This document shows, piece after piece, positions 2,684 to 24,374 of a stretch of DNA of 64,000 nucleotides. The notes beneath the pieces were generated by a model that was not told the DNA's origin, did no database searches, and was given only the letters and a program-made list of their open reading frames with translations. Within the stretch, counting starts at the first letter, position 1. The number at the start of each line of letters is the position of its first letter. The DNA is from Bacilli bacterium (GTDB lineage Bacteria > Bacillota_I > Bacilli_A > RFN20 > CAG-826), in assembly GCA_051872395.1 (NCBI GenBank), contig JBJEDU010000035.1, positions 5,740 to 69,739 on the forward strand, given 5' to 3'. The translations under genes and the position numbers were made by a program.

Positions 2684-4846
2684 TTATTTAATTTTTTTAA
2701 CTAAAAGAAGCAAAACATAAATTGTTAATACTAACGATAAGCCAGTATCACATAACACTGCGACCCACATCGGAAGCTTAATAAATGGAATTAAAGATAA
2801 AACCATAATAATAACTTTTATTGAAAGCGCAAAAACGATAGAAGAAATAGCCTTGAATCTAGTTTTTTTAGCAATCTTAATCGCGCTAACCAATTTATAA
2901 GGGTCATCATTCATGATAACAATATCAGCGTTATCAACAACACTATCACTGCCTAATGAGCCCATCGCGACACCAACATCACTAAGTACAATACTTGGTG
3001 CGTCATTAACTCCATCGCCGACATAGCCAGTCGCTCCTTTATTATTATCAATAACCTCTTTTAAAGAAGATAATTTCTCTTCAGGTAATAATTCATATTT
3101 AACTGATTTGAGGTTAATTTTATCAGCGGTAAATAACGCGCTTTCCTTTTTCGCTCCAGTTAACATTACTGTATTAATATCATGATTATTTAAATATTCG
3201 ATAGTCTTATATGAACCTTCTTTAATTGTGTCATCTAAAGAAATATATCCATAACATTTATTATCAATAACTAAATAAATATTAAGTAGATTATACTCAG
3301 CTGAAACAAAATCTATATTGTGTTGTTTCAAATATGATTCATTTACAATTTTAATTTCTTTTCCAAGATAAGTATATTCCACTCCATGACCTTGAATTTC
3401 GTTAAAAGACTTAACATTTGCAACATTTACACTATTTTTTAACAAAGAAACAACAGCTTTTGCAATTGGATGAGAAGACAAAGATTCACCCATGACAATG
3501 TAGTTATAAAATTCTTCTTTAGAAATTTCTTCAGATATTTTTTCACCAACTAAAGAAAATTGACCAGTTGTTAAAGTTCCAGTTTTATCAAAAACCACTG
3601 TTGATAATTCATTTAAACGATCTAAATAATTACCACCTTTAATAATAATTCCATTCTTTGCTCCTAAAGCCACACCACTAAAATAACTAAGCGGTACCGA
3701 TATGACTATTGCGCATGGACAAGAAATTACTAAGAAGGTTAAAGCAGTATAAAGATAATTACTCCAAGTACTCCAGGCCCAAACATTTGTAAATAAACAA
3801 GTAAATAAAGGTGGAAATATAGCGATAATAAGCGCTAATAAACAGACGATAGGAGTATATATTTTAGCGAATTTATTAATAAAAGATTCAGCTTTGGCTT
3901 TATGTTCTCCGCTTTCTAAAACCATATTTAAAATTTGTGATGTTTTAGAATTGGTAAATGTTGAAGTAGCTTCAATGGATAAAGACCCATCTTTTAAAAT
4001 GGTCCCAGAATAAACAACATCATTTTCATTTACTAATACTGGAACAAATTCTCCAGTTAAAGATGATTGATCAATCGTTCCTTTTCCTTCTTTTACTATT
4101 CCATCAACTGGAAGAACTTCACCAATTTTTATTTTGAGTAAATCTCCTTCTTTAATATCATCACAACTTATTTCTTGAATACCCCCATTACTTAATATTT
4201 TAGATGCGGTTTTACTTCTCATATCAATTGTATTAACAATAATATTTTTTGATTTAATCAAAGAAATTTCTTCAAAAATATTACCGACTTGAGAAAGCAT
4301 AATAACAAGAATCGCTTCATTAAATTCCAATATGCAAAAAGCACCAATTGAAGCAACGACCATAAGTGTATTTTCATTAAATATAGTTTTAATAGATTTA
4401 AATCCTTTAAAGAATTTAATTAAAAAATCATAACTAATAAGTAAATAATCAATAATATATAAAGTAAAACTTATCCACCAAACTACATCGTAAGACTTTT
4501 TACTTAATGGACTAATAACAAAGATATTTATTAATAAGATAATTAAAGATAAAACTATCCTTCCAATCAAAATCATTATTGGCTTAGTAATAATCTTTGT
4601 TTTACCACTACTACGATTATCATTTTCAAATTTTGTAATGGTAATATCTTCGTTTTCAATTTCTTTAATTAAAGAAAGTAATTGTTCGTTTTCTAATTCG
4701 CTATTTTTATAAACTACTGTTAATTTTTCATTTAAAAAATCTAAGTTACAAGATTCAACTTCTTTATTAGTAGCAATATGATTTTGAATTTTTAAAGCAC
4801 AATTAGGGCAATCAATCCCTTTAATTTTATATTTAATCTTCTTCAT
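2684..4846 (-). CDS. P1B-type heavy-metal translocating ATPase (Cd/Zn/Pb-type, CadA/ZntA-like)
   Basis: N-terminal HMA domain with CPNC, TM6 CPC motif (SCPCAIV), DKTGTLT phosphorylation site, GDGVNDAP hinge, TM8 CDTG; 720 aa. Confidence 0.9.
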   Translation of the reverse strand: MKKIKYKIKGIDCPNCALKIQNHIATNKEVESCNLDFLNEKLTVVYKNSELENEQLLSLIKEIENEDITITKFENDNRSSGKTKIITKPIMILIGRIVLSLIILLINIFVISPLSKKSYDVVWWISFTLYIIDYLLISYDFLIKFFKGFKSIKTIFNENTLMVVASIGAFCILEFNEAILVIMLSQVGNIFEEISLIKSKNIIVNTIDMRSKTASKILSNGGIQEISCDDIKEGDLLKIKIGEVLPVDGIVKEGKGTIDQSSLTGEFVPVLVNENDVVYSGTILKDGSLSIEATSTFTNSKTSQILNMVLESGEHKAKAESFINKFAKIYTPIVCLLALIIAIFPPLFTCLFTNVWAWSTWSNYLYTALTFLVISCPCAIVISVPLSYFSGVALGAKNGIIIKGGNYLDRLNELSTVVFDKTGTLTTGQFSLVGEKISEEISKEEFYNYIVMGESLSSHPIAKAVVSLLKNSVNVANVKSFNEIQGHGVEYTYLGKEIKIVNESYLKQHNIDFVSAEYNLLNIYLVIDNKCYGYISLDDTIKEGSYKTIEYLNNHDINTVMLTGAKKESALFTADKINLKSVKYELLPEEKLSSLKEVIDNNKGATGYVGDGVNDAPSIVLSDVGVAMGSLGSDSVVDNADIVIMNDDPYKLVSAIKIAKKTRFKAISSIVFALSIKVIIMVLSLIPFIKLPMWVAVLCDTGLSLVLTIYVLLLLVKKIK

Positions 4847-5147
4847 CTTTTAATTTCTCCTTTGCATGTTGATAAGCAACAGAAATTAAAAGTTGAACAT
4901 GTTCATCATCTAAAAAATAAAAGACATAATTTTTTTCTTTTCTAAATGAAACAAGTTTCGCTTTCTTTAATATTTTTAATTGATGTGACACTAAAGATTG
5001 AGAAGCATTAATCTCAAATTGAATATCAGAAACACATTTTTCCCCTTCAAATAAACATAATAATATTTTTAGTCGAGTCTCATCAGCGGCTATTTGTAAT
5101 AACTGTGACATTTCTGTCAATAAATCTTCATTAATTTTATCAATCAT
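4833..5147 (-). CDS. ArsR/SmtB-family metalloregulator (CadC-like)
   Basis: wHTH ArsR signature (DETRLKILLCL...CVSDI...SQSLVSHQLKILKKAKLV); start moved to second Met (5147) which has RBS tagAGGTaaaatt; overlaps ATPase start by 14 nt. Confidence 0.8.
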   Translation of the reverse strand: MIDKINEDLLTEMSQLLQIAADETRLKILLCLFEGEKCVSDIQFEINASQSLVSHQLKILKKAKLVSFRKEKNYVFYFLDDEHVQLLISVAYQHAKEKLKDEED

Positions 5148-5159
5148 AATTTTACCTCT

Positions 5160-5212
5160 ATATGAATAACTGTTCATATTTCAATTATTATTATATGAAT
5201 AGTTGTTCATAT
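5160..5212. promoter_or_regulatory. Two tandem 20-bp imperfect palindromes ATATGAATAACTGTTCATAT and ATATGAATAGTTGTTCATAT: candidate ArsR/SmtB operators in promoter of the arsR-ATPase operon
   Basis: Direct reading; 7-6-7 inverted repeat ATATGAA..TTCATAT repeated 33 bp apart immediately upstream of the repressor gene. Confidence 0.45.
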
Positions 5213-5258
5213 TGTAAACAAAAAAATATCCTGGAATAACCAGAATATTAATTTTTTA

Positions 5259-13507: not shown

Positions 13508-14348
13508 TAAAGAACCTCTTTTATATTTACTTAGCACTCCAATTGGGAATTTATCTGATATTTCTTTAAGAGCCAAAGAAATTCTTTCTTCATGCGATTT
13601 AATTGCCGCGGAAGATACAAGAAATACAAATTTTTTATTAGATAGAATTGGAATTAATAAACCCATTATTTCTTTACATGAACATAATGAAGTTAAAGCT
13701 TCTTTATCATTAATTAATAAAATTAAAGAAGAAAATATCAATGTAGTTTATGTATCTGACGCTGGATATCCAGGCATCAGCGATCCAGGCCATATCCTAG
13801 TAGAAAAATGTATCGAAAATAATATTAAAGTATCGGTCATTCCTGGACCTAGTGCTTTTTTAAGCGCTTTAGTCGCCTCAAATATTGACACTAATCACTT
13901 TGTTTTTTATGGTTTTTTAGACGCTAGAACAAATAAAGCGAGAAGTGAATTAAATAAATTAAAAGATTATGAGCATACTTTAATTTTTTATGAATCGCCA
14001 CATCGAATTGAGAAAACGATAAATTTATTTTATGAAGTACTTGGTGATAGAAAGTTCACTTTAGCGAGAGAATTAACCAAACTAAATGAAGAATATATTT
14101 ACGGAACATTATCTGAATTAGTTAATATTGATTTCTCATCTTTAAAAGGAGAAATTGTCATTGTAATTGAAGGCAAAAAAGAAGAAAAAGAACAATCTTC
14201 AATCGATAATGAAGAAATTAAATTAATCATCAAAAAATTATTGAAAGAAAACAAAACAAAAACTGAGATAACATCGTTATTAATCGAACAATATAAAATA
14301 AGTAAAAAAGTTATTTATAATCTATTTTCATTAATCGATAAAGAATAA
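13482..14348 (+). CDS. rsmI: 16S rRNA (cytidine1402-2'-O)-methyltransferase RsmI
   Basis: Tetrapyrrole-methylase fold motifs (LYLLSTPIGNLSDIS, AAEDTR, YESPHR). Confidence 0.9.
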   Translation: MKRNKSFNNKEPLLYLLSTPIGNLSDISLRAKEILSSCDLIAAEDTRNTNFLLDRIGINKPIISLHEHNEVKASLSLINKIKEENINVVYVSDAGYPGISDPGHILVEKCIENNIKVSVIPGPSAFLSALVASNIDTNHFVFYGFLDARTNKARSELNKLKDYEHTLIFYESPHRIEKTINLFYEVLGDRKFTLARELTKLNEEYIYGTLSELVNIDFSSLKGEIVIVIEGKKEEKEQSSIDNEEIKLIIKKLLKENKTKTEITSLLIEQYKISKKVIYNLFSLIDKE

Positions 14349-17300
14349 TTTTTTATTTTCTTTATCGACTTTCTTAATATCGAAATAGGAATAAGTTAAA
14401 TACATTATTATAAAAGAAACCATACCAACAAAACTCAAGGCATTGCCTTCTTTTAAATATGGTGGATAAAAGTCTAATTCATAATGATTATTTCCTTCAT
14501 TAGCTAAAAAGGAAACGAAACCACCTTGAGCAGGAAATACTTCAATATTTTTCTTTTCACCATTTTCATCAATTTCTTTAACTTTCCAACCCTCTTCATA
14601 CGCAATACGGGTGACAATTACTCTCTTAGAAGAATAATTAGTGTCAAAATCAAAATGGTTTGTTGAATAATTAACATTGTTTAATTTGTTTTCCTCTAAG
14701 GTAGATAAAGTATTATAAAAATCCGTGCCACTTTCATAATATAAGCGAATTGATGATTGAGCGTTAATCTCACTAAAACGTGGAACAATAATTATATTTT
14801 TAATTTTATTTTTGGTATAAAAAGTTCTTAATGATTTATTTGATGATGTCGTATTATCATCGTTATGATTATCAAATAAACAAATATTATCGTTTTCATC
14901 TAAAAAATAAACATTAATCTTTTTATTGCTTGTAAAAGAATATTGAAGAGTGAAAATATTTCCTTCTTCATCAAATGGGAAATAAGAAAATCCGCTATTG
15001 GATAAAAAGATTACGATGTGATTAGTAGAACTATTCGAAGCAGTTGGATTAGTTAAAGAATAGTTAGCAGGTATATTTTTTAATTCATCCAAACTCATTT
15101 TTAATGGATTTGAAGAACCTGTCGAATAATAATCAAATTGTAATGAAATATTTTTATTTAAAGCTTGCTCATTACCAAAATTATAAATAGTTTGTTCAGT
15201 TAATGTATTGTTAGATAATTCAAGAAGTCGATCATAATACTCATAAGAATAAAGTCCACATTTTAAATATAGTTCTTCATTTCTTAAAGGATAATATGAT
15301 GAACTCGCTAAAGTAGTTTGTTTATCTTCCATTGAATTATATGTCGCGATTTTATCAAAAGAGAAACCTAAATCGATAAATTTCGTATTTCGATAAACAT
15401 AAAATGAATCATTAGGATATAAAGAAGAAATATCTTCAAAATAAAATGGAACGTTGATGTTTACATCATCTAAACAAGTATCTTTTTCAACAAAGTAATA
15501 TTTAATACCTAAGAATGTATCTAAGTTGGCTCTTTTTTCTACGTAAGATCCACTCCACCCATTAATATTTTGAGTCAAACGACTCCAAGTAATAAATTCC
15601 ACAGTGTTAAAGTTATAAATAGAATGAAAGAAACTAACACCATTATAATTATTTCTCATCCCATCATTTCTTGCAGAATCAGTAGCTAAAGAAGAATAAC
15701 ATCGATAATATGTAGGGTCATCTTTTTTTATCCTACTTGTTAAGGCGTATAAATCTTCATTTTTTTCTAATCCATTATTGACAGAATTATAATTTGTGTA
15801 ACCATGGAAAATAGTAATTAAAGAACCCATCGTCACTAATTCGATACAAACAAATATATTAAAAGCTTTATAATAAGAACCCTTTTTAAGTGCGATACGA
15901 ACGACAAAATAGAAAACAGTTACATATACTAAATAAATGATGAGAGGTATAAATAAAGGCATTCTTTCACTAAAGTTATATTTCTCATTATTAACAAGAT
16001 AATAAGCGATGAGCACTGATGCCACTCCACCTATAAATGCAAATAAATAACCAAATAATAAATGAAGAGGTTTCATTTCTTTAATTCGATCAATATATAA
16101 ACCAACATAAGTAATTAAAGAAGTGGCGACAAACAAATACCATCTCGAATATGGTTTAGTAAAACCAAAGCACAAATAATAGAAAAATGGAGTGAAAATT
16201 GCAAGGATAAAGAAAATTATGGCAATAAAATGACTTATTTTTCTTCTTTTAAATGAGTCAATAATCGTCGGCACTAATAATACAATAAATGGAGAAAAAC
16301 AAAATAAAGAACCCGCAACATTATCATAAGATTCATTACCTAAAACAGTTAACGGTGTACCTCTATCGCTTGTGGTTGGGAAGAAAAATTCAATTATTGG
16401 ATATAAAACCCGATATCCTTTATTTCCCCCATCAACATCATTAAAAGAAAATAATAATTTTAAAGCATCAACAATTTTTCCTTCTTTAAATGCTGATAAT
16501 AAGTTTGCTAAATAAGTAGAACTAGTAGCCCTATCACTATTAATAGCAATCATCGCGCCAGGAAGGACAACTACTAGTGATAAAAGAATGCCAACTAAAA
16601 ATCCAATAAAGCCAATTCCTAAGATAATTAGATTATCTTTTGCATTGTTTAATTTTAACCTCTGGAAATATCTAAACATCGCATAAATAAAAGCGCAAAT
16701 AACGAAGCAAATAAAGAAGAAATAATTGGTTACACCCATTAAAAGTAATGACACCATTAAAACAAATGGGCGTTTTTCTTTTAATATTTTTTCTACACCT
16801 AATAAGATAAGAGGAAAAAAGACTGCAACTTCAGAAAAATGGTTAAACCATAAATACCAACTAACCCAACCAGAAAAAGCGTACGCTAAACCGCATAACA
16901 TCGAAGTCTCTTCTTTAACTTTGAAATAGCGAATGTAAAAATAAAACGCTAATCCTGAACAAGCTAATTTAAGTATAGTCATCGCCGCCATAACTTGTGG
17001 AATAATGGCGCGAGGAAATATCAAAGTTAATAAGAAAAAGGGATCAAATAAATAATAAAAGGAATTTGAACCAATATTATTTGCCCCTAAATATGTATTA
17101 GTATCATAAAAAACAAATTCACCAGTTTTAAAGAAATGATGCCAATCATCATATCCATTTAAATAAAAGGAAAATTGTTGAGCGCAATAATCTCCAGAAT
17201 ATGGAGTTGTAAAATTATTAGTAATTAAAATGGAAAAGAAAAATAATATTCCCATTATTAAAAGGAATAAAAAATATTCAAATTGAGATTTATGATTTTT

Positions 17301-17408
17301 AAAAAAATCTGTAATCATCAATAAAAATTTATTATTAGATTTCTTTTGATTATTTTTAAAAGCAATATCCATCTTCATTATTATAAAATCAAATAGAATA
17401 AATTGCAC
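14331..17408 (-). CDS. YfhO-family membrane glycosyltransferase-like protein (many N-terminal TM helices, large extracytoplasmic C-terminal domain)
   Basis: 1025 aa, hydrophobic N-terminal 550 aa, YfhO-like topology; start codon uncertain (several Met within first 31 codons, none with good RBS). Confidence 0.65.
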   Translation of the reverse strand: MQFILFDFIIMKMDIAFKNNQKKSNNKFLLMITDFFKNHKSQFEYFLFLLIMGILFFFSILITNNFTTPYSGDYCAQQFSFYLNGYDDWHHFFKTGEFVFYDTNTYLGANNIGSNSFYYLFDPFFLLTLIFPRAIIPQVMAAMTILKLACSGLAFYFYIRYFKVKEETSMLCGLAYAFSGWVSWYLWFNHFSEVAVFFPLILLGVEKILKEKRPFVLMVSLLLMGVTNYFFFICFVICAFIYAMFRYFQRLKLNNAKDNLIILGIGFIGFLVGILLSLVVVLPGAMIAINSDRATSSTYLANLLSAFKEGKIVDALKLLFSFNDVDGGNKGYRVLYPIIEFFFPTTSDRGTPLTVLGNESYDNVAGSLFCFSPFIVLLVPTIIDSFKRRKISHFIAIIFFILAIFTPFFYYLCFGFTKPYSRWYLFVATSLITYVGLYIDRIKEMKPLHLLFGYLFAFIGGVASVLIAYYLVNNEKYNFSERMPLFIPLIIYLVYVTVFYFVVRIALKKGSYYKAFNIFVCIELVTMGSLITIFHGYTNYNSVNNGLEKNEDLYALTSRIKKDDPTYYRCYSSLATDSARNDGMRNNYNGVSFFHSIYNFNTVEFITWSRLTQNINGWSGSYVEKRANLDTFLGIKYYFVEKDTCLDDVNINVPFYFEDISSLYPNDSFYVYRNTKFIDLGFSFDKIATYNSMEDKQTTLASSSYYPLRNEELYLKCGLYSYEYYDRLLELSNNTLTEQTIYNFGNEQALNKNISLQFDYYSTGSSNPLKMSLDELKNIPANYSLTNPTASNSSTNHIVIFLSNSGFSYFPFDEEGNIFTLQYSFTSNKKINVYFLDENDNICLFDNHNDDNTTSSNKSLRTFYTKNKIKNIIIVPRFSEINAQSSIRLYYESGTDFYNTLSTLEENKLNNVNYSTNHFDFDTNYSSKRVIVTRIAYEEGWKVKEIDENGEKKNIEVFPAQGGFVSFLANEGNNHYELDFYPPYLKEGNALSFVGMVSFIIMYLTYSYFDIKKVDKENKKLFFID

Positions 17409-17505: not shown

Positions 17506-19335
17506 ATGAATACAAGAAATATCGCCATTATTGCTCACGTCGACCATGGAAAAACTACCCTAGTAGACCAATTATTAAAAACTGCAGGGACATTTAGAAG
17601 CAATGAAGAAGTTAATGAACGTGTCATGGATAGCAATGATATTGAAAGAGAAAGAGGAATTACTATTCTCGCAAAAACTACTTCAATTTTTTATCATGAT
17701 TATAAAATAAATATTTTAGACACTCCTGGTCATGCTGATTTTGGAGGCGAAGTTGAAAGAATTATGAACATGGTTGATGGCGTTCTCTTATTAGTGGATG
17801 CCTTTGAAGGAACGATGCCACAAACAAGATTCGTTTTAAAGAAAGCATTACAAGCTCACATCAAACCAATTGTCGTCATTAATAAAATAGACCGCGCCAA
17901 TATTGATATACAAAAAACTTTAGATGAAGTTTTAGATTTATTTATAGAATTAGGTGCTGATGATGATTTATTAGATTTCAAAGTTGTTTATACTTCCGCT
18001 TTAAAAGGAACATCATCATTATCGCCTGAACTCGAATCACAAGTTCCAGGAATGGATGTATTATTTGAAACAATTATTAAAGAAATTCCTGAACCTAATG
18101 CTGATATTAACGGACCACTTCAATTACAAGTAGCGTTATTAGATTATAACGATTTCGTTGGAAGAATTGGTGTTGGCACTATTAAAAGAGGAACGATTAA
18201 AGTCAATGATAATGTCGCTTTAGCGAGAAATAATGACACTGTAAGACAATTTAGAGTAATGAAATTATTTGGTTATCAAGGTCTTAAAAGAGTGGAAATC
18301 GAAGAAGCTCATGCTGGTGATATTGTCGCTGTCGCTGGACTTAGTGATATTAATGTTGGTGAAACCATCTGCAGTGTCGATAATGTTGAACCACTACCAA
18401 AAATTAAATTAGATGAACCAACTCTTCAAATGACTTTTGGAACAAATACCTCTCCATTTTCAGGAAGAGATGGAAAACTTTTAACTGCTAGAAAAATTGA
18501 AGAAAGACTTTTTAAAGAGGTTCAAAAAGATATTGCGTTAAGAGTCGAAAGAATTCCTAATACTGAAAGTTGGATAGTTTCAGGTAGAGGAGAACTTCAT
18601 TTATCAATTTTAATTGAAAATATGAGAAGAGAAGGCTATGAACTTCAAGTATCAAAACCACAAGTAATTATCAAAGAAATTGATGGAGTAAAATGCGAAC
18701 CATACGAAGATTTAATGATCGATGTTCCAAACGATTATGTTGGAGATGTCATGACCACAATTGGAGAAAGAAGTGGCGAACTCATTAATATGGACGCTGG
18801 TGATGTCACAACAAGAATCGATTATATTATTCCTTCTCGCGGTTTATTAGGATATACGACTTCATTTTTAACATTAACCAAAGGTTATGGAATTATTTCT
18901 CACACTTTTAGAGAATATCGTCCATATAAAAAATTAGAGCTTGGAGAAAGATTATTAGGTGTTTTAGTCGCTACTGAAAGCGGATTAGCCACTCCATACG
19001 CTTTAGAACACGTTGAAGAAAGAGGAACAATGTTTATTGAACCAGGTGTTGAAGTATATGAAGGAATGATAGTTGGTGAAAATCGCTACGACATCGATTT
19101 AGCGGTCAATGTGGTTACTAAAAAGAATTTAACAAATGTTAGAAGTTCAACAAAAGATAACACTGTCGTTTTAAAAACACCTCGTAAAATGTCTCTTGAA
19201 GGTTGCTTGGATTACATTAATCTTGATGAATTAGTGGAAATTACCCCAAAAACTTATAGGATGAGAAAGAAAATATTAAATACGGTCGAAAGAAAGAAAT
19301 ATGACGCTCATCAAAAAAGAGATAATGAAAATTAA
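17506..19335 (+). CDS. typA: Ribosome-associated translational GTPase TypA/BipA
   Basis: GTPase G1-G4 (AHVDHGKTT, DTPGHADF, NKID), EF-G-like domains, 609 aa. Confidence 0.95.
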   Translation: MNTRNIAIIAHVDHGKTTLVDQLLKTAGTFRSNEEVNERVMDSNDIERERGITILAKTTSIFYHDYKINILDTPGHADFGGEVERIMNMVDGVLLLVDAFEGTMPQTRFVLKKALQAHIKPIVVINKIDRANIDIQKTLDEVLDLFIELGADDDLLDFKVVYTSALKGTSSLSPELESQVPGMDVLFETIIKEIPEPNADINGPLQLQVALLDYNDFVGRIGVGTIKRGTIKVNDNVALARNNDTVRQFRVMKLFGYQGLKRVEIEEAHAGDIVAVAGLSDINVGETICSVDNVEPLPKIKLDEPTLQMTFGTNTSPFSGRDGKLLTARKIEERLFKEVQKDIALRVERIPNTESWIVSGRGELHLSILIENMRREGYELQVSKPQVIIKEIDGVKCEPYEDLMIDVPNDYVGDVMTTIGERSGELINMDAGDVTTRIDYIIPSRGLLGYTTSFLTLTKGYGIISHTFREYRPYKKLELGERLLGVLVATESGLATPYALEHVEERGTMFIEPGVEVYEGMIVGENRYDIDLAVNVVTKKNLTNVRSSTKDNTVVLKTPRKMSLEGCLDYINLDELVEITPKTYRMRKKILNTVERKKYDAHQKRDNEN

Positions 19336-19361: not shown

Positions 19362-19398
19362 AAAAAAACTAGGTTGTATCAATTCGCCTAGTTTTTTC
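19362..19398. terminator. Bidirectional rho-independent terminator (A7-stem aactagg/cctagtt-T6) between convergent typA and P-II-like gene
   Basis: Inverted repeat flanked by A-run and T-run read directly. Confidence 0.45.
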
Positions 19399-19428: not shown

Positions 19429-19785
19429 TTATTCGCTATCTTTTTTTATACCTGCGACATCACTGACAGGGAGAGAAAAAGCAATGCCTTGACAATCAGT
19501 TCCTAATCCCGCCGCGGTATTTATCGCTAATAAAACATTATCTCTAATTGATTGATGAACGAGAATTAAAATTAATTCTTTATCTGGAGAAATGGTAATA
19601 TCAAATTTGGATGTTAATTCTTTAGTAGCGGTTCCTCTAGCGTGAAGAATTGTGCCACCTTTCGCTCCTTCTTTTCTCGCTGCGTCCATAACAATATCTG
19701 AATAGCCAGAATTGATAATGACAACAAGACATTCATATTCATTTTCTTCTGTAATAATCTCTTCTTTTTTTGTTTCTTTTTTCAT
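19429..19785 (-). CDS. P-II (GlnB-like) family small regulatory protein
   Basis: 118 aa; ferredoxin-like P-II pattern (LVVIINSGYSDIVMDAARKEGAKGGTIL...GTDCQGIAFSLPV resembling the GDGKIFV region). Confidence 0.65.
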   Translation of the reverse strand: MKKETKKEEIITEENEYECLVVIINSGYSDIVMDAARKEGAKGGTILHARGTATKELTSKFDITISPDKELILILVHQSIRDNVLLAINTAAGLGTDCQGIAFSLPVSDVAGIKKDSE

Positions 19786-19799
19786 AAAATAATCCTCGC

Positions 19800-20189
19800 T
19801 TACATCTTTGAAAATATGCGATATGCAGTAACGGAAGATATGGCTTTTAAGTCTACTGAAAATCCAATTCCTTTACTTGAATCATCCATTTTAAAATAGG
19901 CTTCAAGTTCAACTTTATAAAGAGGTAAATCTTCTTTTCGACATAATGTAAAAACTATATCTTTTTTATTATTTTCAATTCCTAAAATGTCATAGACATC
20001 TTTGCTTGCTGTTCCTAAACCAATTTGAGAAAAAGTTAAAATGGAACCGAGTGAATTAAATAATTTGGTAATAGAATTGCCTTCTCCACGAGGAACGATT
20101 GCGATGTAGAAAGAAAGTGGTTTAATATCACTTCGATCTTCGTATTTTTGTTTAACTTTCTCAACTTTTTTCTTAATTATTCTCGCCAT
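19800..20189 (-). CDS. Small hypothetical protein, possibly second P-II-like subunit
   Basis: 129 aa, operonic between DUF1538-like membrane protein and P-II-like gene; no definitive motif. Confidence 0.4.
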   Translation of the reverse strand: MARIIKKKVEKVKQKYEDRSDIKPLSFYIAIVPRGEGNSITKLFNSLGSILTFSQIGLGTASKDVYDILGIENNKKDIVFTLCRKEDLPLYKVELEAYFKMDDSSKGIGFSVDLKAISSVTAYRIFSKM

Positions 20190-20200
20190 AAAATTAAACC

Positions 20201-21733
20201 TTAAAAGTGAATAATTTGATTATCATCTTGGTCGTAAACAATTTTTCTATTGTGGAAGATAATCTTCATTTCTTTAACCTTTTCGACCATACCTAATAAT
20301 TGAATACCGATAATTGGTGTTAACGCAATAAGTGCGACAACACCAAAAGAAGTTGAATAGTAATCCGCGGATTCGCCATATAAAGTGAATGTTACACCTA
20401 AAATTAAAGGTAAGACAAAACTAACAGACATTGGTCCAGAAGCCGTTCCACCACTATCGAAAGCAAAGGCTGTATATATATCATTACAAAAGAACATGAG
20501 AACTAAAGAAATAATATATCCTGGAACCATGTAATACATAATTGAGAAATTATAAATCACCCTAATCGCACTAAGCATAATGGCTAAACCAACACCAATA
20601 GAAAGAGTAATTAAAACTGTTCTCTTTTTAATTCTTCCATCACTTATTGCTTCAATTTGTCCAGTTAAAACATGGACTGCGGGTTCACATAAAATAGTTA
20701 ATAAACCTATACCAAAACAAATGAGGATAATGACTATTGGTTCATGTTTTCCTAAAAGTGAACCAATCATTCCTCCGATAGGATTCATCACTGCACTAAC
20801 AGCGGTTAAAAATAAAACTAATCCGACATAAGTAAAAGCAAAACCAGTAAGTAACTTTAATACTTTCCTTCTTGGAAGTTTAATAAATATTAACTCATAA
20901 ATAAAGAAAATGACTAAAATTGGTAGAATCGCCATTAAGACTTCAATTAGAGAACCTAATGAAGTTGCACTGCTTGGTAAAAGAGCTTTAATAAAGTTTG
21001 ACCATTGAGGATTATTAATAGCGAATTCAAAGTAACCTGAAATATTTTTATTTAAGATAATTAGTAATGTCATAGTAAAGATTGGTCCAATTGAGGCCAT
21101 TCCTACTAAACCAAAAGAATCATTCGTGGAATTTTTACCACCACGAACAATCGCTACACCAGCGCCAAGAGATAAAATAAAAGGCACCGTCGCACTACCA
21201 GTAGTAATTCCACCACTATCAAAAATAAATGGAAGGAAAGTCGGATTATTAAGTGCGCATAAAATTATGAGCATAAATGTTATCGCATAGAAAAATAAAT
21301 ACCAAACTTTTAAAGAACCATGAATGATAATTCTAATAATTCCGATAACGACAAATATTCCCACTCCAACAGCGATAGAGCCAATCAATAAAAATTTATT
21401 AATATTTACTTGCTCGCTGACAACGATAATCGATGGTTCAGCGCATGTAATAAGCGCACCTAAAATAAATGAAAAGATTATAATTATCCAAATATTTTTT
21501 TGTTTTGATAAAGAACTTCCCATATATTCTCCAACTTTTGATAAGGAACTAGAGGCTCCAATTTGAAAGAGTGCTAACCCAACAATTAAAACTAAGGCAC
21601 CAACTAATAAAATTGGATAATTAGAAGATGGTAAAGGAGTTAAGCCTGTCAAAGACAAAATAATGACGATACCAATCATTGGAAGGATTGATAAGCAACT
21701 AGTTAGAAAAGCTTTTAAATATAAATTCTTCAT
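20201..21733 (-). CDS. Internally duplicated polytopic membrane protein (DUF1538-like, putative transporter)
   Basis: 510 aa, two homologous halves each with FDSGG(I/T)(T/A)SG motif (FIFDSGGITTGSATVPF / FAFDSGGTASGPMSVSF), about 12 TM segments. Confidence 0.6.
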   Translation of the reverse strand: MKNLYLKAFLTSCLSILPMIGIVIILSLTGLTPLPSSNYPILLVGALVLIVGLALFQIGASSSLSKVGEYMGSSLSKQKNIWIIIIFSFILGALITCAEPSIIVVSEQVNINKFLLIGSIAVGVGIFVVIGIIRIIIHGSLKVWYLFFYAITFMLIILCALNNPTFLPFIFDSGGITTGSATVPFILSLGAGVAIVRGGKNSTNDSFGLVGMASIGPIFTMTLLIILNKNISGYFEFAINNPQWSNFIKALLPSSATSLGSLIEVLMAILPILVIFFIYELIFIKLPRRKVLKLLTGFAFTYVGLVLFLTAVSAVMNPIGGMIGSLLGKHEPIVIILICFGIGLLTILCEPAVHVLTGQIEAISDGRIKKRTVLITLSIGVGLAIMLSAIRVIYNFSIMYYMVPGYIISLVLMFFCNDIYTAFAFDSGGTASGPMSVSFVLPLILGVTFTLYGESADYYSTSFGVVALIALTPIIGIQLLGMVEKVKEMKIIFHNRKIVYDQDDNQIIHF

Positions 21734-21775
21734 CTCGTTTTTATTATAAATAAAATATCTAATTGTTTATAGATG

Positions 21776-21816
21776 CAAAATAAAAATCATGTCTCTTTTT
21801 GATAAAGACATGATTT
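21776..21816 (-). terminator. Rho-independent terminator downstream of lemA (10-bp stem aatcatgtct/agacatgatt, U-run on minus strand)
   Basis: Read directly; stem followed by TTTTTATTTTG on transcribed strand. Confidence 0.5.
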
Positions 21817-21846
21817 CAAATATTCTTAGTAAGAAATATCTATCTA

Positions 21847-22509
21847 TTAAAAGAAGACATCTCTCGCTTTTTGTTTCATTTCTTTACTTGCGGTAAATGG
21901 AATACGTGTAGTGTATCCTGCTCTTGCTGCCACGATCATCTTAGTTGGCCAAGCAAATATTTCACGGTTCCAAGTCGCCACTGTATCGTTATAAACTTCT
22001 CTAGCGGCAGTAATTTCTCTTTGTAAATAAGAGTTTTGTTGCATCGCATCAGCGATTTCTTGGTGAGCTTTTAAATCTGGATAATTTTCCACTGCGACAT
22101 TGATTTTCGCATTGACGTTTTCAATTTCAGTTGCCATCGCATTTAAATCTTTGTTAGCAGCGTTTCCACTACGATATTTAGCAATTTCTGAGAATGTATC
22201 TTTATCAAGAGCGATTGCTTTATCTAATAATCTTGCAACGTTTTGTAAAATGACAACTCTTTGTTCAAGATAATTATCAATTGTTGATGCATCGTGTTGG
22301 ATTTTTTGTTGTAATTGTTGAAAATATTTTTTTGCATTGATTTTCATAAAAGTAAAAACAATACCTGGGATGATAAATAACACCCATAACAATACTTCAA
22401 AAAGGGTGCTGCCCCAACCAACTTTTACTTGGATTTGTTTTTCAATAACATTAATATCACGTCCATTTTCGTTAACTGGACCAGTTAATTCATCTAATTC
22501 ATTAGCCAT
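21847..22509 (-). CDS. lemA: LemA family membrane protein
   Basis: Single N-terminal TM, LemA signature (ENYPDLKA...REITAAREVYNDTV...NREI); RBS GGGAGG. Confidence 0.85.
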   Translation of the reverse strand: MANELDELTGPVNENGRDINVIEKQIQVKVGWGSTLFEVLLWVLFIIPGIVFTFMKINAKKYFQQLQQKIQHDASTIDNYLEQRVVILQNVARLLDKAIALDKDTFSEIAKYRSGNAANKDLNAMATEIENVNAKINVAVENYPDLKAHQEIADAMQQNSYLQREITAAREVYNDTVATWNREIFAWPTKMIVAARAGYTTRIPFTASKEMKQKARDVFF

Positions 22510-22586
22510 ATTTTTATTTATCCTCCCTAAATTAGATATACATACTTATAATAAATTATATTTTTGAATTATTAAATAATAATTGA

Positions 22587-24374
22587 TTATTTGCTGGGCG
22601 AAATCAAAGTCGCAAGAATACCACGTTTGAAAATTGATTTAAGTTTATCAACATTGGTATTTTTACTATATTGTTCATTTGTTTCGTTTGTTGCTTGAAC
22701 TAAAATAGTTGAATTCTTTTGAAGTGGAATATATTCATACCATTCAACTGGTACGTTGTGGTAGTGTCCATCACGACCATAAACTGAAACAAAGTCAACA
22801 TGTTTAATAGTCTTATATGAATAGCAAGTAACATTCACTTCATCCACTGTTTTGTCCTTCTTGATGAAATTGGTTTTTAAAATTCCAGGAGTAACACTTT
22901 CTGGATGAAGGAAATGCTTGGAATCAAATGTGTTCGCTGCTACTTCATGTTCATAATCAGTAACATTACTTGGCCAATCATATTTATAAATATATTCTTT
23001 AGTTTTTGTTTGTTGATATAAAGGAATAGATAATAAAGGAGCGAAATTGAAGAAGAATGATTTGAAATATTCGTCATTATATGAGACAAAATTATTTCTT
23101 GCATCTTCAAGATCAAAATTAATATATCTTCTTGGATCCGCGGTAATATCAAACCCTTGCGCGTGTTCTGCTTTGACAAAATTTAAATATTTATATTTAT
23201 AGAAATAGAAATCATCACCATATCCATAGTCATGGTCTTTAACTAACTCCATAATGTTGTTTTGCGCAAGTGGAGTAAAGAGCAATCTAAATTCCATATC
23301 GTTATCACGATTTAAAGCATTAAATAGCATTTCGAATTCAGCATTATACATTCTGGTAAATGTTGATGGATCATCATCAGTTAATGATTTTTGCACCATT
23401 TTATCTAATTTTTTATCGAATTTTGCCGCTTCTTTATCAATATTTTTTTCATCTAATTTAGCTTTATCAGTTGGCTTACGTGAGAAAGTTAAATGAGGCG
23501 CGGCATCACACCCATAAATGAGCCATGTGTCTCTATAATAAATTGGTTTTGGTTTTGTAATGAAAGCTTCAAGAACTTGAGAATGACTAACCGTGCGATA
23601 ACCATTGCTAGTTCTTTCAGTAGTCGTCCAATGAATTGTAATCGCCCCTCGATAAGTATAATCGACAATTTCTGTAACAAAATTTTCTCTTATAATAAAT
23701 GGATTACCTAAAATAGAACCAGATTGCACAGCGAGAGTACTTTGATTGACATTCGTATTGGAATCTAAACCATATTTTTCATGTAAATATTCAAATTTTT
23801 TGGTATCTAAATATTTATCCATTTGGAAAAGCGGACAAGTTTTAGACACTAAAGAGGCTGGAATATTCCAATCATACGAAGCGTTTAAAGGCGCCATTTG
23901 AGCGTAGGCTTCTTGTTTTAAATTATTGGCTTCTTCAATCAGTTTATTTTTTAACGAAAATAAGTCATTGATATCTTTATTGATGTCTTTAAAACCAAAG
24001 ACACAAATAATGATACCAATAATTAATCCACCTACTAATAGAGGGATAGAAATCGCTAAAGAAACACTAGAATTAAAAGCAATTAATAAAATTAAACCCA
24101 CAACAGCGGCTAAGAAAAAGATAATCGCTAATGCAATGATGAAATTTTTAATAGCCTTCTTCTTTTTTAATTTTTTATCTGTATTAGAAGCTTCTTTTAA
24201 TTTTGCGTAATGTTTTTTGACTGTTTCTTTATTGAGCTCTTCATCGACTTTATTAGATTTGACAAGCTCATCAAAAAACTTAATGCTATTTTCATGATGA
24301 AGGGATTTTAAAACCGATTTGTAAACTTTTAATGGTTCTAATAAATCATTTTGTTGCATTGTTTTTTCTCCCAA
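22587..24374 (-). CDS. Hypothetical membrane protein (N-terminal coiled-coil, TM hairpin, large C-terminal domain of unknown function)
   Basis: 595 aa ORF, two adjacent hydrophobic helices at aa 78-128; no recognisable catalytic motif. Confidence 0.5.
   Translation of the reverse strand: MGEKTMQQNDLLEPLKVYKSVLKSLHHENSIKFFDELVKSNKVDEELNKETVKKHYAKLKEASNTDKKLKKKKAIKNFIIALAIIFFLAAVVGLILLIAFNSSVSLAISIPLLVGGLIIGIIICVFGFKDINKDINDLFSLKNKLIEEANNLKQEAYAQMAPLNASYDWNIPASLVSKTCPLFQMDKYLDTKKFEYLHEKYGLDSNTNVNQSTLAVQSGSILGNPFIIRENFVTEIVDYTYRGAITIHWTTTERTSNGYRTVSHSQVLEAFITKPKPIYYRDTWLIYGCDAAPHLTFSRKPTDKAKLDEKNIDKEAAKFDKKLDKMVQKSLTDDDPSTFTRMYNAEFEMLFNALNRDNDMEFRLLFTPLAQNNIMELVKDHDYGYGDDFYFYKYKYLNFVKAEHAQGFDITADPRRYINFDLEDARNNFVSYNDEYFKSFFFNFAPLLSIPLYQQTKTKEYIYKYDWPSNVTDYEHEVAANTFDSKHFLHPESVTPGILKTNFIKKDKTVDEVNVTCYSYKTIKHVDFVSVYGRDGHYHNVPVEWYEYIPLQKNSTILVQATNETNEQYSKNTNVDKLKSIFKRGILATLISPSK

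Follow-up and report, generated by a model that had tools for sequence, protein, structure and literature searches.

A fused DUF1538 membrane protein encoded with a pair of P-II-like proteins in a Bacilli bacterium: a probable P-II-gated transporter

The locus described here raises the question of whether a polytopic membrane protein and two small P-II-like proteins encoded beside it work as one system and, if so, what would cross the membrane under their control. It lies in a stretch of 64,000 nucleotides of contig JBJEDU010000035.1 from a Bacilli bacterium, referred to as the window, in which open reading frame (ORF) calls place three genes on the minus strand between positions 19429 and 21733, with products of 510, 129 and 118 aa. 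A sequence-only reading had described a three-gene operon with these products, and the ORFs were found exactly at its coordinates, with intergenic gaps of 11 and 14 nt; public gene calls for the source contig give the same three genes. The two small proteins are named here PII-A (129 aa) and PII-B (118 aa). Few signal processors are as widespread in biology as the P-II proteins, whose only structurally detailed partnerships with transporters are, to our knowledge, AmtB-GlnK and SbtA-SbtB. With a probability that we put at roughly 60%, the locus encodes a P-II-gated secondary transporter, probably of the monovalent cation/proton type, which has its own P-II pair. If this is true, the module adds a third P-II-transporter partnership.

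Gene linkage and the P-II-like pair

Linkage of the three genes was followed in two sets of loci. The close set comprises 77 species-representative genomes with a close relative of the membrane protein (51-66% identity), all of them from uncultured gut or rumen Bacilli. The order DUF1538, PII-A, PII-B, where DUF1538 is the Pfam family of the 510-aa protein, is kept with short gaps in 75 of these 77 loci and is therefore conserved far beyond chance; as for the two exceptions, one contig is truncated and in the other locus only PII-A escaped tblastn. The distant set comprises 85 loci, 80 of them metagenomic (37-62% identity to the C-repeat, the second of the two DUF1538 units) and five on plasmids or chromids. 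The pattern used to scan metagenomes was built from an alignment of DUF1538 C-repeats only, and the loci were scored with hidden Markov models (HMMs) of the PII-A and PII-B families. A P-II gene lies directly downstream in all of the distant loci with readable downstream sequence (83/83), the remaining two contigs ending at DUF1538. Complete fused DUF1538 genes are followed by two P-II genes in 27 loci and by one tandem P-II gene in 34, and 12 further contigs stop after a first, PII-A-like, gene; P-II genes are also found beside a truncated DUF1538 gene in seven loci. Split pairs of DUF1538 genes are accompanied by a single P-II in L081 and L082 and by a tandem P-II in L126. Three cultured bacteria, Desulfitobacterium hafniense, Treponema pedis and Virgibacillus necropolis, have the same arrangement, their stop and start codons overlapping, and are hosts in which the question is directly open to experiment. 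Across lineages, a dedicated P-II gene is coupled to the transporter gene in the manner of AmtB-GlnK and SbtA-SbtB. In one locus (L118, 3224-7042) a second fused DUF1538 gene stands directly after the tandem P-II gene, two transporters flanking one regulator.

The 105 nearest flanking ORFs of the distant loci gave 102 Pfam families, none of them found in more than seven loci (sigma-70 factors in seven, pseudouridine synthases in five), and this survey revealed no other conserved neighbour of the three-gene module. In the close set, typA is convergent downstream in only about a third of the loci. An Rfam search upstream of DUF1538 in 15 distant loci found no riboswitch before the module. The genomic context, to which the sequence-only reading had looked for hints of the substrate, gave no usable clue from neighbours. 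A Guanidine-I riboswitch (91.8 bits) on a Paraclostridium bifermentans plasmid (L079, 11083-11185) precedes sugE at about 4 kb from the module and is unrelated to it.

Natural gene fusions argue for a direct physical partnership between the transporter and P-II domains. Eight of the 150 best cluster representatives have one or two P-II-like domains fused C-terminally to the two-repeat DUF1538. A search with the fusion P0221 (720 aa) returned at least nine clusters (at 90% identity) of proteins of 709-739 aa with both Pfam domains, which are 37%-72% identical to P0221 and some of which have up to 262 member sequences. Two DUF1538 repeats, PII-A and PII-B are joined in P0221, P0277-P0282, P0298 and P0231, and in loci L164-L166 (gene at 3001-5220). 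One of these fusions, P0278, is carried by at least six contigs, and its ORF is intact on contigs that stem from three different samples. DUF1538 is fused at its C-terminus, which is cytoplasmic as judged from the bias in Lys plus Arg (K+R) described below. Shorter fusions with one P-II-like domain were also observed (P0143, P0194, P0216, P0244, P0261 and P0269), the domain being PII-A-like in some and PII-B-like in others.

These data bear on the idea that the adjacency is a conserved gene order without functional coupling, or that DUF1538 is not a transporter and would be a membrane enzyme or a structural protein. The predicted fold of the membrane protein has no solved counterpart, and its function is therefore unreadable from structure, which leaves some room for such an explanation. 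However, the co-occurrence extends across Bacillota, Spirochaetota and Pseudomonadota and embraces every distant locus with downstream sequence (83/83), the stop and start codons overlap and gene fusion is recurrent. Moreover, transport has been demonstrated for UmpAB, a DUF1538 pair (PMC5484666), and an inverted-repeat architecture is typical of carriers. We regard this explanation as very improbable. The proposal of a P-II-regulated transporter module, made from the sequence, is strongly supported by synteny in every sampled locus and by the fusions; the regulation itself is what we infer.

The two small proteins have counterparts within a single chain in other bacteria. In Clostridia (Vescimonas, Paraclostridium, Peptoclostridium) the fused DUF1538 gene is followed by one gene for a 'P-II family nitrogen regulator' of about 222 aa, in which PII-B aligns with the C-terminal domain (27-45% identity, E 1e-13 to 1e-20) and PII-A with the N-terminal domain (24-26% identity, E about 2e-5). 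Both domains of this tandem protein match Pfam P-II in Peptoclostridium, and the N-terminal domain passes in L080. In Alphaproteobacteria (Chelativorans, Methylocystis) two separate DUF1538 genes precede a single P-II gene, whose product of 112-122 aa is 36-43% identical to PII-B; PII-B is also 36-45% identical to the P-II products of the DUF1538 operons in L078, L081 and L082. Judged by these alignments, PII-A and PII-B are the split form of the tandem P-II of about 220 aa that is found in Clostridia, Treponema and Desulfitobacterium. The earlier description of two small P-II-like proteins is right as to their family, but they are not independent, since they correspond to the halves of a protein encoded elsewhere by one gene. 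The fused and split forms of DUF1538 are interchangeable among relatives, and both present the two homologous units known from UmpAB.

PII-B passes the Pfam P-II family (PF00543) narrowly, with 28.8 bits against a gathering score of 25, the match running over residues 20-116 and profile positions 4-101 of 102. A profile of 65 syntenic PII-B orthologues matches solved GlnB/GlnK/NifI-like chains over their full length (E 3e-7 to 1e-3), reaches more than 35 solved P-II chains at E ≤0.03 and has as its best match by sequence in the Protein Data Bank (PDB) a 105-aa P-II family chain, 9p1x (E 3.1e-7); these matches bear out the P-II features noticed earlier in the 118-aa protein. By sequence, SbtB is a marginal match to the same profile (E 0.35). 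In the entry 9p1x the 105-aa chain, labelled 'P-II family nitrogen regulatory protein', is present in 12 copies; we take it to resemble NifI1. When canonical numbering is mapped via an alignment to 3o8w, G24, G27, T29, G35, G37, K58, G87 and G89 are kept and R103 becomes K, and PII-B may have retained a pocket for adenine nucleotides. Its T-loop is shorter than the canonical one by five residues, and PII-B departs from GlnB/GlnK in both its ligand contacts and its T-loop length. The window's own PII-B has A53 and C98 at canonical G37 and G87, positions that are glycines in most orthologues, which may explain the marginal Pfam score. A c-di-AMP receptor of the PstA/DarA type was also considered, since the host belongs to Bacillota, and proved unsupported, with no PstA/DarA among the PDB matches at E ≤1 and a B-loop of canonical length; PII-B could still bind c-di-AMP in another mode.

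PII-A begins with a Lys-rich extension (residues 1-24), which is followed by a P-II core (residues 25-113). It had no match in Pfam, in NCBIfam or among PDB sequences, and a direct word-indexed search retrieved six relatives only; its homology was shown through profiles built from syntenic loci. The profile of 62 PII-A orthologues aligns with that of PII-B over 101 columns with 97.9% probability in hhalign (E 6.5e-13). The AlphaFold2 model has a beta-alpha-beta-beta-alpha-beta core, with a predicted local distance difference test (pLDDT) score of about 85-90 in the core, and the 50 best Foldseek matches of this model in the PDB are all P-II-like (SbtB, CPII, GlnK1; best E 6.5e-5). Both homology and fold place PII-A among P-II proteins. 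The sequence-only reading had called both small proteins P-II-like and had offered a failure to model as P-II folds as an argument against itself; the PII-A model has the P-II fold, so that the suggestion stands. In two genomes labelled Erysipelotrichaceae (L050 6581-7222, L051 6578-7201) about 80 extra residues bring the length of the PII-A orthologue to 207-213 aa. The best-conserved blocks of the two proteins, residues 51-80 of PII-A and 41-70 of PII-B, flank the T-loop, which fits a role in partner binding.

The partner need not be the membrane protein only. P-II proteins such as GlnK and SbtB commonly have several targets: AmtB-GlnK controls DraG, and SbtB controls the glycogen-branching enzyme. 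The membrane protein could likewise be mainly a sensor or docking site (a 'transceptor'), the P-II pair being the real output and its sequestration controlling other cytoplasmic targets. Such a role would agree with the retention of the pair even in small, Mollicutes-like genomes and with the loss in PII-A of the putative nucleotide-pocket motif, by which this protein might have been specialised for binding other proteins. It agrees poorly with the covalent P-II fusions of several lineages, which would block release to other targets, with the lack of a third conserved partner gene in the flanking-ORF survey and with the invariant intramembrane Glu and Asp of DUF1538, which point to ion translocation. 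We consider it improbable as the main function, and the P-II pair is taken in what follows as a regulator of transport.

The DUF1538 membrane protein and its activity

The 510-aa protein matches Pfam PF07556 (DUF1538) twice, with 358.4 bits (E 1.3e-107) where the gathering score is 22.6 bits, and both stretches cover the full 211-position profile, in accordance with the family named in the sequence-only reading. Its halves align with 31% identity over 224 residues (E 3e-23) and the FDSGG motif occurs in each of them; the internal duplication, which had also been noticed from the sequence, is therefore real. DUF1538 is a family of moderate size, with 2,904 clusters at 50% identity (E ≤1e-3) out of 1.84 billion. 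Some of its members (P0152, P0155, P0159, P0177 and P0197) have acidic, low-complexity C-terminal tails of 116-174 aa with no detectable domain.

UmpAB is the only characterised member of this family. It is a pair of DUF1538 proteins of Halomonas zhaodongensis that acts as a Na+(Li+,K+)/H+ antiporter (PMC5484666). UmpA and UmpB, of about 240 aa each, are required together and co-immunoprecipitate; with them, Escherichia coli KNabc regains its tolerance of salt and alkali, and everted vesicles show antiport that depends on pH, and Arg, Asp and Glu residues conserved in the homologues of both have been reported (PMC5484666). The 510-aa protein scores 122.6 bits with NCBIfam UmpA (NF041627) and 132 bits with UmpB (NF041628), below the equivalog cut-offs of 490 and 500 bits, and its clostridial and alphaproteobacterial relatives are also far under these cut-offs (80-175 bits). 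By these scores it is a member of the DUF1538 family and not an UmpAB orthologue, and since they lie so far below the cut-offs, the substrate of UmpAB is not simply transferable to it. A match to a characterised transporter family, which would have told against the idea of an undescribed module, thus exists technically through UmpAB, but at 122-132 bits against 490-500.

The AlphaFold2 model of the 510-aa protein, obtained with an alignment of 22 homologues, is all-helical (pLDDT 81.7, predicted TM-score 0.82), and its helices break at the A/C-E-P and F-D-S-G-G motifs of each repeat. Foldseek found no match to this model in the PDB at E ≤1e-3, with TM-scores of at most 0.22, and a sequence search of the PDB also gave none. 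An SbtA-, Amt-, NhaA-, MFS- or CLC-like identity is ruled out because there is no counterpart among solved structures, and similarity to the SbtA (PF05982) and Amt (PF00909) families is likewise lacking.

The invariant acidic residues of the family fall at the helix breaks. When the DUF1538 repeats of all fetched loci were aligned, neither the Glu of the E-P motif (Glu99) nor the Asp of the F-D-S-G-G motif (Asp172) varied (313/313 repeats); Arg134 is conserved as Arg in 287 repeats and replaced by Lys in the other 26, and several glycines are invariant. Repeat 1 thus contributes E99, D172 and R134, whose counterparts in repeat 2 are E350, D426 and R391. The Glu and Asp at these breaks, with the conserved Arg, are likely to be the ion-binding and proton-coupling residues.

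Topology was read from K+R counts, in which the model helices are taken as seven membrane segments per repeat and Lys and Arg are tallied in the loops. N-repeats have on average 6.2 K+R in even-numbered loops and 2.3 in odd ones, a bias seen in 140 of 148 and reversed in none, whereas C-repeats have 1.8 in even and 7.0 in odd loops, with the bias in 148 of 153. In split pairs the second subunit is biased like a C-repeat (1 vs 7 in L081_B, 2 vs 5 in L082_B), and L082_A is only weakly biased the other way (3 vs 2). Since the bias is opposite in the two repeats, the positive-inside rule suggests that they are oppositely oriented, and the 510-aa protein is read as two repeats of inverted topology, with seven transmembrane segments each (7+7) and with the N- and C-terminus of the chain in the cytoplasm. 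Alternating-access carriers are usually built on such an inverted repeat. From the opposite orientation it follows that split pairs of the UmpA/UmpB type would be antiparallel heterodimers; for the split subunits of L081 and L082 this is a point that the UmpAB paper does not discuss.

The residues and the fold also bear on the substrate. The same P-II-gated architecture could serve a substrate other than an alkali cation, for example an anion such as bicarbonate or a small metabolite, the antiport of UmpAB being then a side activity or one specific to its subfamily. The window protein is distant from UmpAB, whose activity comes from a single heterologous study (PMC5484666), and because of this the substrate of the DUF1538 family is weakly anchored. 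The best structural matches of PII-A, SbtB and CPII, are partners of inorganic-carbon transporters, and the glycine-rich breaks (F-D-S-G-G-x-x-x-G) could equally coordinate an anion or the carboxylate of a substrate. On the other hand, the predicted fold is unlike SbtA or any solved transporter, no carbonic anhydrase, carboxysome or metabolic gene recurs among the flanking ORFs, and no riboswitch was detected by Rfam upstream of the module in the window or in the 15 distant loci. The hosts are anaerobes of gut, rumen and sediment, which are CO2-rich habitats, and an invariant Glu and Asp in each repeat suit a cation and a proton better than an anion. The match of PII-A to SbtB reflects only the fold that they share, since GlnK1 has nearly the same score. 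A non-cation substrate is in our view unlikely, and we favour monovalent cation/proton exchange.

Under the P-II-gated cation/proton reading, the transporter would be one chain with two homologous seven-segment repeats in opposite orientations, each supplying an invariant Glu, an invariant Asp and a conserved Arg for ion binding and proton coupling. By homology to UmpAB and from the acidic residues, it would most likely exchange a monovalent cation (Na+, Li+ or K+) for H+. PII-A and PII-B would probably assemble as a hetero-oligomer on the cytoplasmic face of the transporter, where, through their conserved T-loop regions, they would open it or block it in response to a small ligand; the most plausible one is an adenine nucleotide that PII-B would bind. 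Such gating would resemble that of GlnK on AmtB and of SbtB on SbtA. Only tentatively do we extend this proposal to a broader formulation, in which DUF1538 would be a structurally new class of inverted-repeat transporter with an obligate heteromeric P-II pair, one member ligand-competent and the other degenerate, forming a third paradigm of P-II-controlled transport whose effector would not be the classical ATP/2-oxoglutarate and whose substrate would perhaps not be that of UmpAB.

Several points weigh against P-II-gated cation/proton exchange. The link between transporter and P-II proteins is known here from genes and sequence comparison, and physical binding through the T-loops, the ligand, the stoichiometry, the direction of regulation and the substrate are things that we infer. 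UmpAB is functional in E. coli with no P-II gene on the clone, and its activity was established in one study by KNabc complementation and everted vesicles (PMC5484666); the 510-aa protein is itself far from UmpAB orthology, at the scores given above. In PII-B the canonical R38, Q39, D88, K90 and R101 are replaced by T, K, Q, I and G, respectively, and PII-A lacks equivalents of G27 and T29 of the 'GGT' motif, which together make classical ATP/2-oxoglutarate sensing unlikely. The PII-A model was built from six sequences only (overall pLDDT 74), and the count of seven segments per DUF1538 repeat relies on two broken helices being read as single crossings.

The small genes are currently annotated as 'P-II family nitrogen regulator' or 'hypothetical protein', and the former name is probably misleading, because canonical residues for nitrogen/2-oxoglutarate sensing are missing. 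The series of split, tandem and target-fused P-II forms offers a natural handle on stoichiometry and interaction surfaces.

Operon boundaries and neighbours

The coordinates of the operon and of its boundary elements are collected in Table 1. Shine-Dalgarno-like motifs (TAAGGT, GAGGA) adjoin the preceding stop codons. On the 5' side, the terminator of lemA has a 14-bp stem followed by a T run and leaves about 50 nt before the ATG of the 510-aa gene, with a TATAAT box about 10 nt 5' of this ATG. A promoter consensus scan found promoter-like sites at background frequency only, and the placement of the promoter is therefore tentative. The hairpin on the 3' side is probably a bidirectional terminator, which the consensus terminator scan did not report. 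With terminators at both ends and short gaps between them, the three genes therefore form a compact unit of their own.

Table 1. Elements of the DUF1538/P-II operon in the window
Feature	Position	Strand	Basis
Fused two-repeat DUF1538 (UmpAB-family) membrane protein, 510 aa	20201..21733	-	Pfam, half-vs-half alignment, AlphaFold2
PII-A, divergent P-II-like protein, 129 aa	19800..20189	-	hhalign, AlphaFold2, Foldseek
PII-B, P-II family protein, 118 aa	19429..19785	-	Pfam P-II, orthologue profile vs PDB
Short 5' region with TATAAT box, likely operon promoter (tentative)	21734..21782	-	sequence
Terminator-like hairpin ending upstream lemA; 5' boundary of the operon	21783..21817	-	terminator scan and sequence
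Hairpin AAAAAACTAGG-(loop)-CCTAGTTTTTT between convergent typA and PII-B; 3' boundary of the operon	19362..19397	.	sequence

The window, which derives from a metagenome-assembled genome (P0001 being 100% identical), has a G+C content of about 30%. Rfam gave no match at E ≤1 between positions 19000 and 23000, and none in the whole window at gathering scores. Upstream, on the minus strand at 21847-24374 and with their own terminator, lie adjacent genes for a LemA-family protein (220 aa) and a MAG1210-family protein (595 aa); the latter has 607 bits in NCBIfam and a weak DUF2207_C match, and the name of its family points to a Mycoplasma-like lineage. Beside typA, also on the minus strand (14331-17408), is the gene for a polytopic membrane protein of 1025 aa with a large C-terminal extracytoplasmic part.

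Comparison with known systems

The nearest characterised relative, UmpAB, resembles the window protein in having PF07556 in two homologous copies with about seven predicted transmembrane segments per copy. It differs in that UmpA and UmpB are separate, whereas the window's copies are fused in one chain of 510 aa, and in having been described and assayed without a P-II partner, whereas the window operon includes two P-II-like genes. P-II proteins are not mentioned in the UmpAB paper (PMC5484666), and our search of the accessible literature on DUF1538/UmpAB and P-II-like transporters found no paper linking DUF1538 to P-II. The sequence-only reading had considered such modules functionally uncharacterised; this must be corrected as far as DUF1538 has a characterised member in UmpAB (PMC5484666), and it holds for the DUF1538/P-II link, on which no paper was found. 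Cable-bacteria genome papers transfer the UmpAB annotation to homologues (PMC12093952), and in ecological genomics the DUF1538 gene is annotated by transfer as a Na+/H+ antiporter on the strength of one distant homologue. A machine-learning study lists DUF1538, alongside cation transporters, among the features predicting optimal growth pH (PMC13255231), which is weakly consistent with a role in ion/pH homeostasis.

The cyanobacterial Na+/bicarbonate transporter SbtA and its P-II-like regulator SbtB share with the module the order of a transporter gene followed by a dedicated P-II-like gene, and SbtB chains are the best PDB matches of the PII-A model (E 6.5e-5). The presumed logic is also alike, with a T-loop that would lock the carrier in response to adenine nucleotides. 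However, the DUF1538 model has no fold similarity to SbtA, the window has two different P-II-like proteins where SbtA has one, and there is no carbon-concentrating context. As in AmtB-GlnK, a membrane transport protein and a P-II are encoded in one operon, and the PII-B profile aligns with GlnB/GlnK over the full length. In contrast, DUF1538 has no similarity to Amt, the T-loop of PII-B is five residues shorter with R38, Q39, D88, K90 and R101 replaced, and a second, degenerate P-II paralogue is always present where DUF1538 is fused.

NifI1 and NifI2, the products of adjacent genes, are P-II paralogues whose heteromer acts on nitrogenase, and the module resembles them in having two distinct P-II paralogues in tandem, presumably as one heteromeric regulator. 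The difference lies in the presumed target, here a membrane transporter, and in the fact that paralogues of the window type are also found fused to each other and to that target. As regards the membrane protein, a comparison is offered by small antiparallel transporters, the EmrE-type SMR pairs and Fluc/CrcB, and by their fused descendants. DUF1538 units likewise have opposite K+R bias and occur as two genes (L081, L082, L126) or as a fused chain, but they are much larger, with about 240 aa and seven segments each, and have a soluble P-II regulator.

Seen beside these systems, the module is widespread, and automated annotation already picks it up. Rather than a system of a new kind, it is probably an undescribed variant of P-II-controlled transport, marked by the unsolved fold of the transporter and by its unusual two-paralogue regulator.

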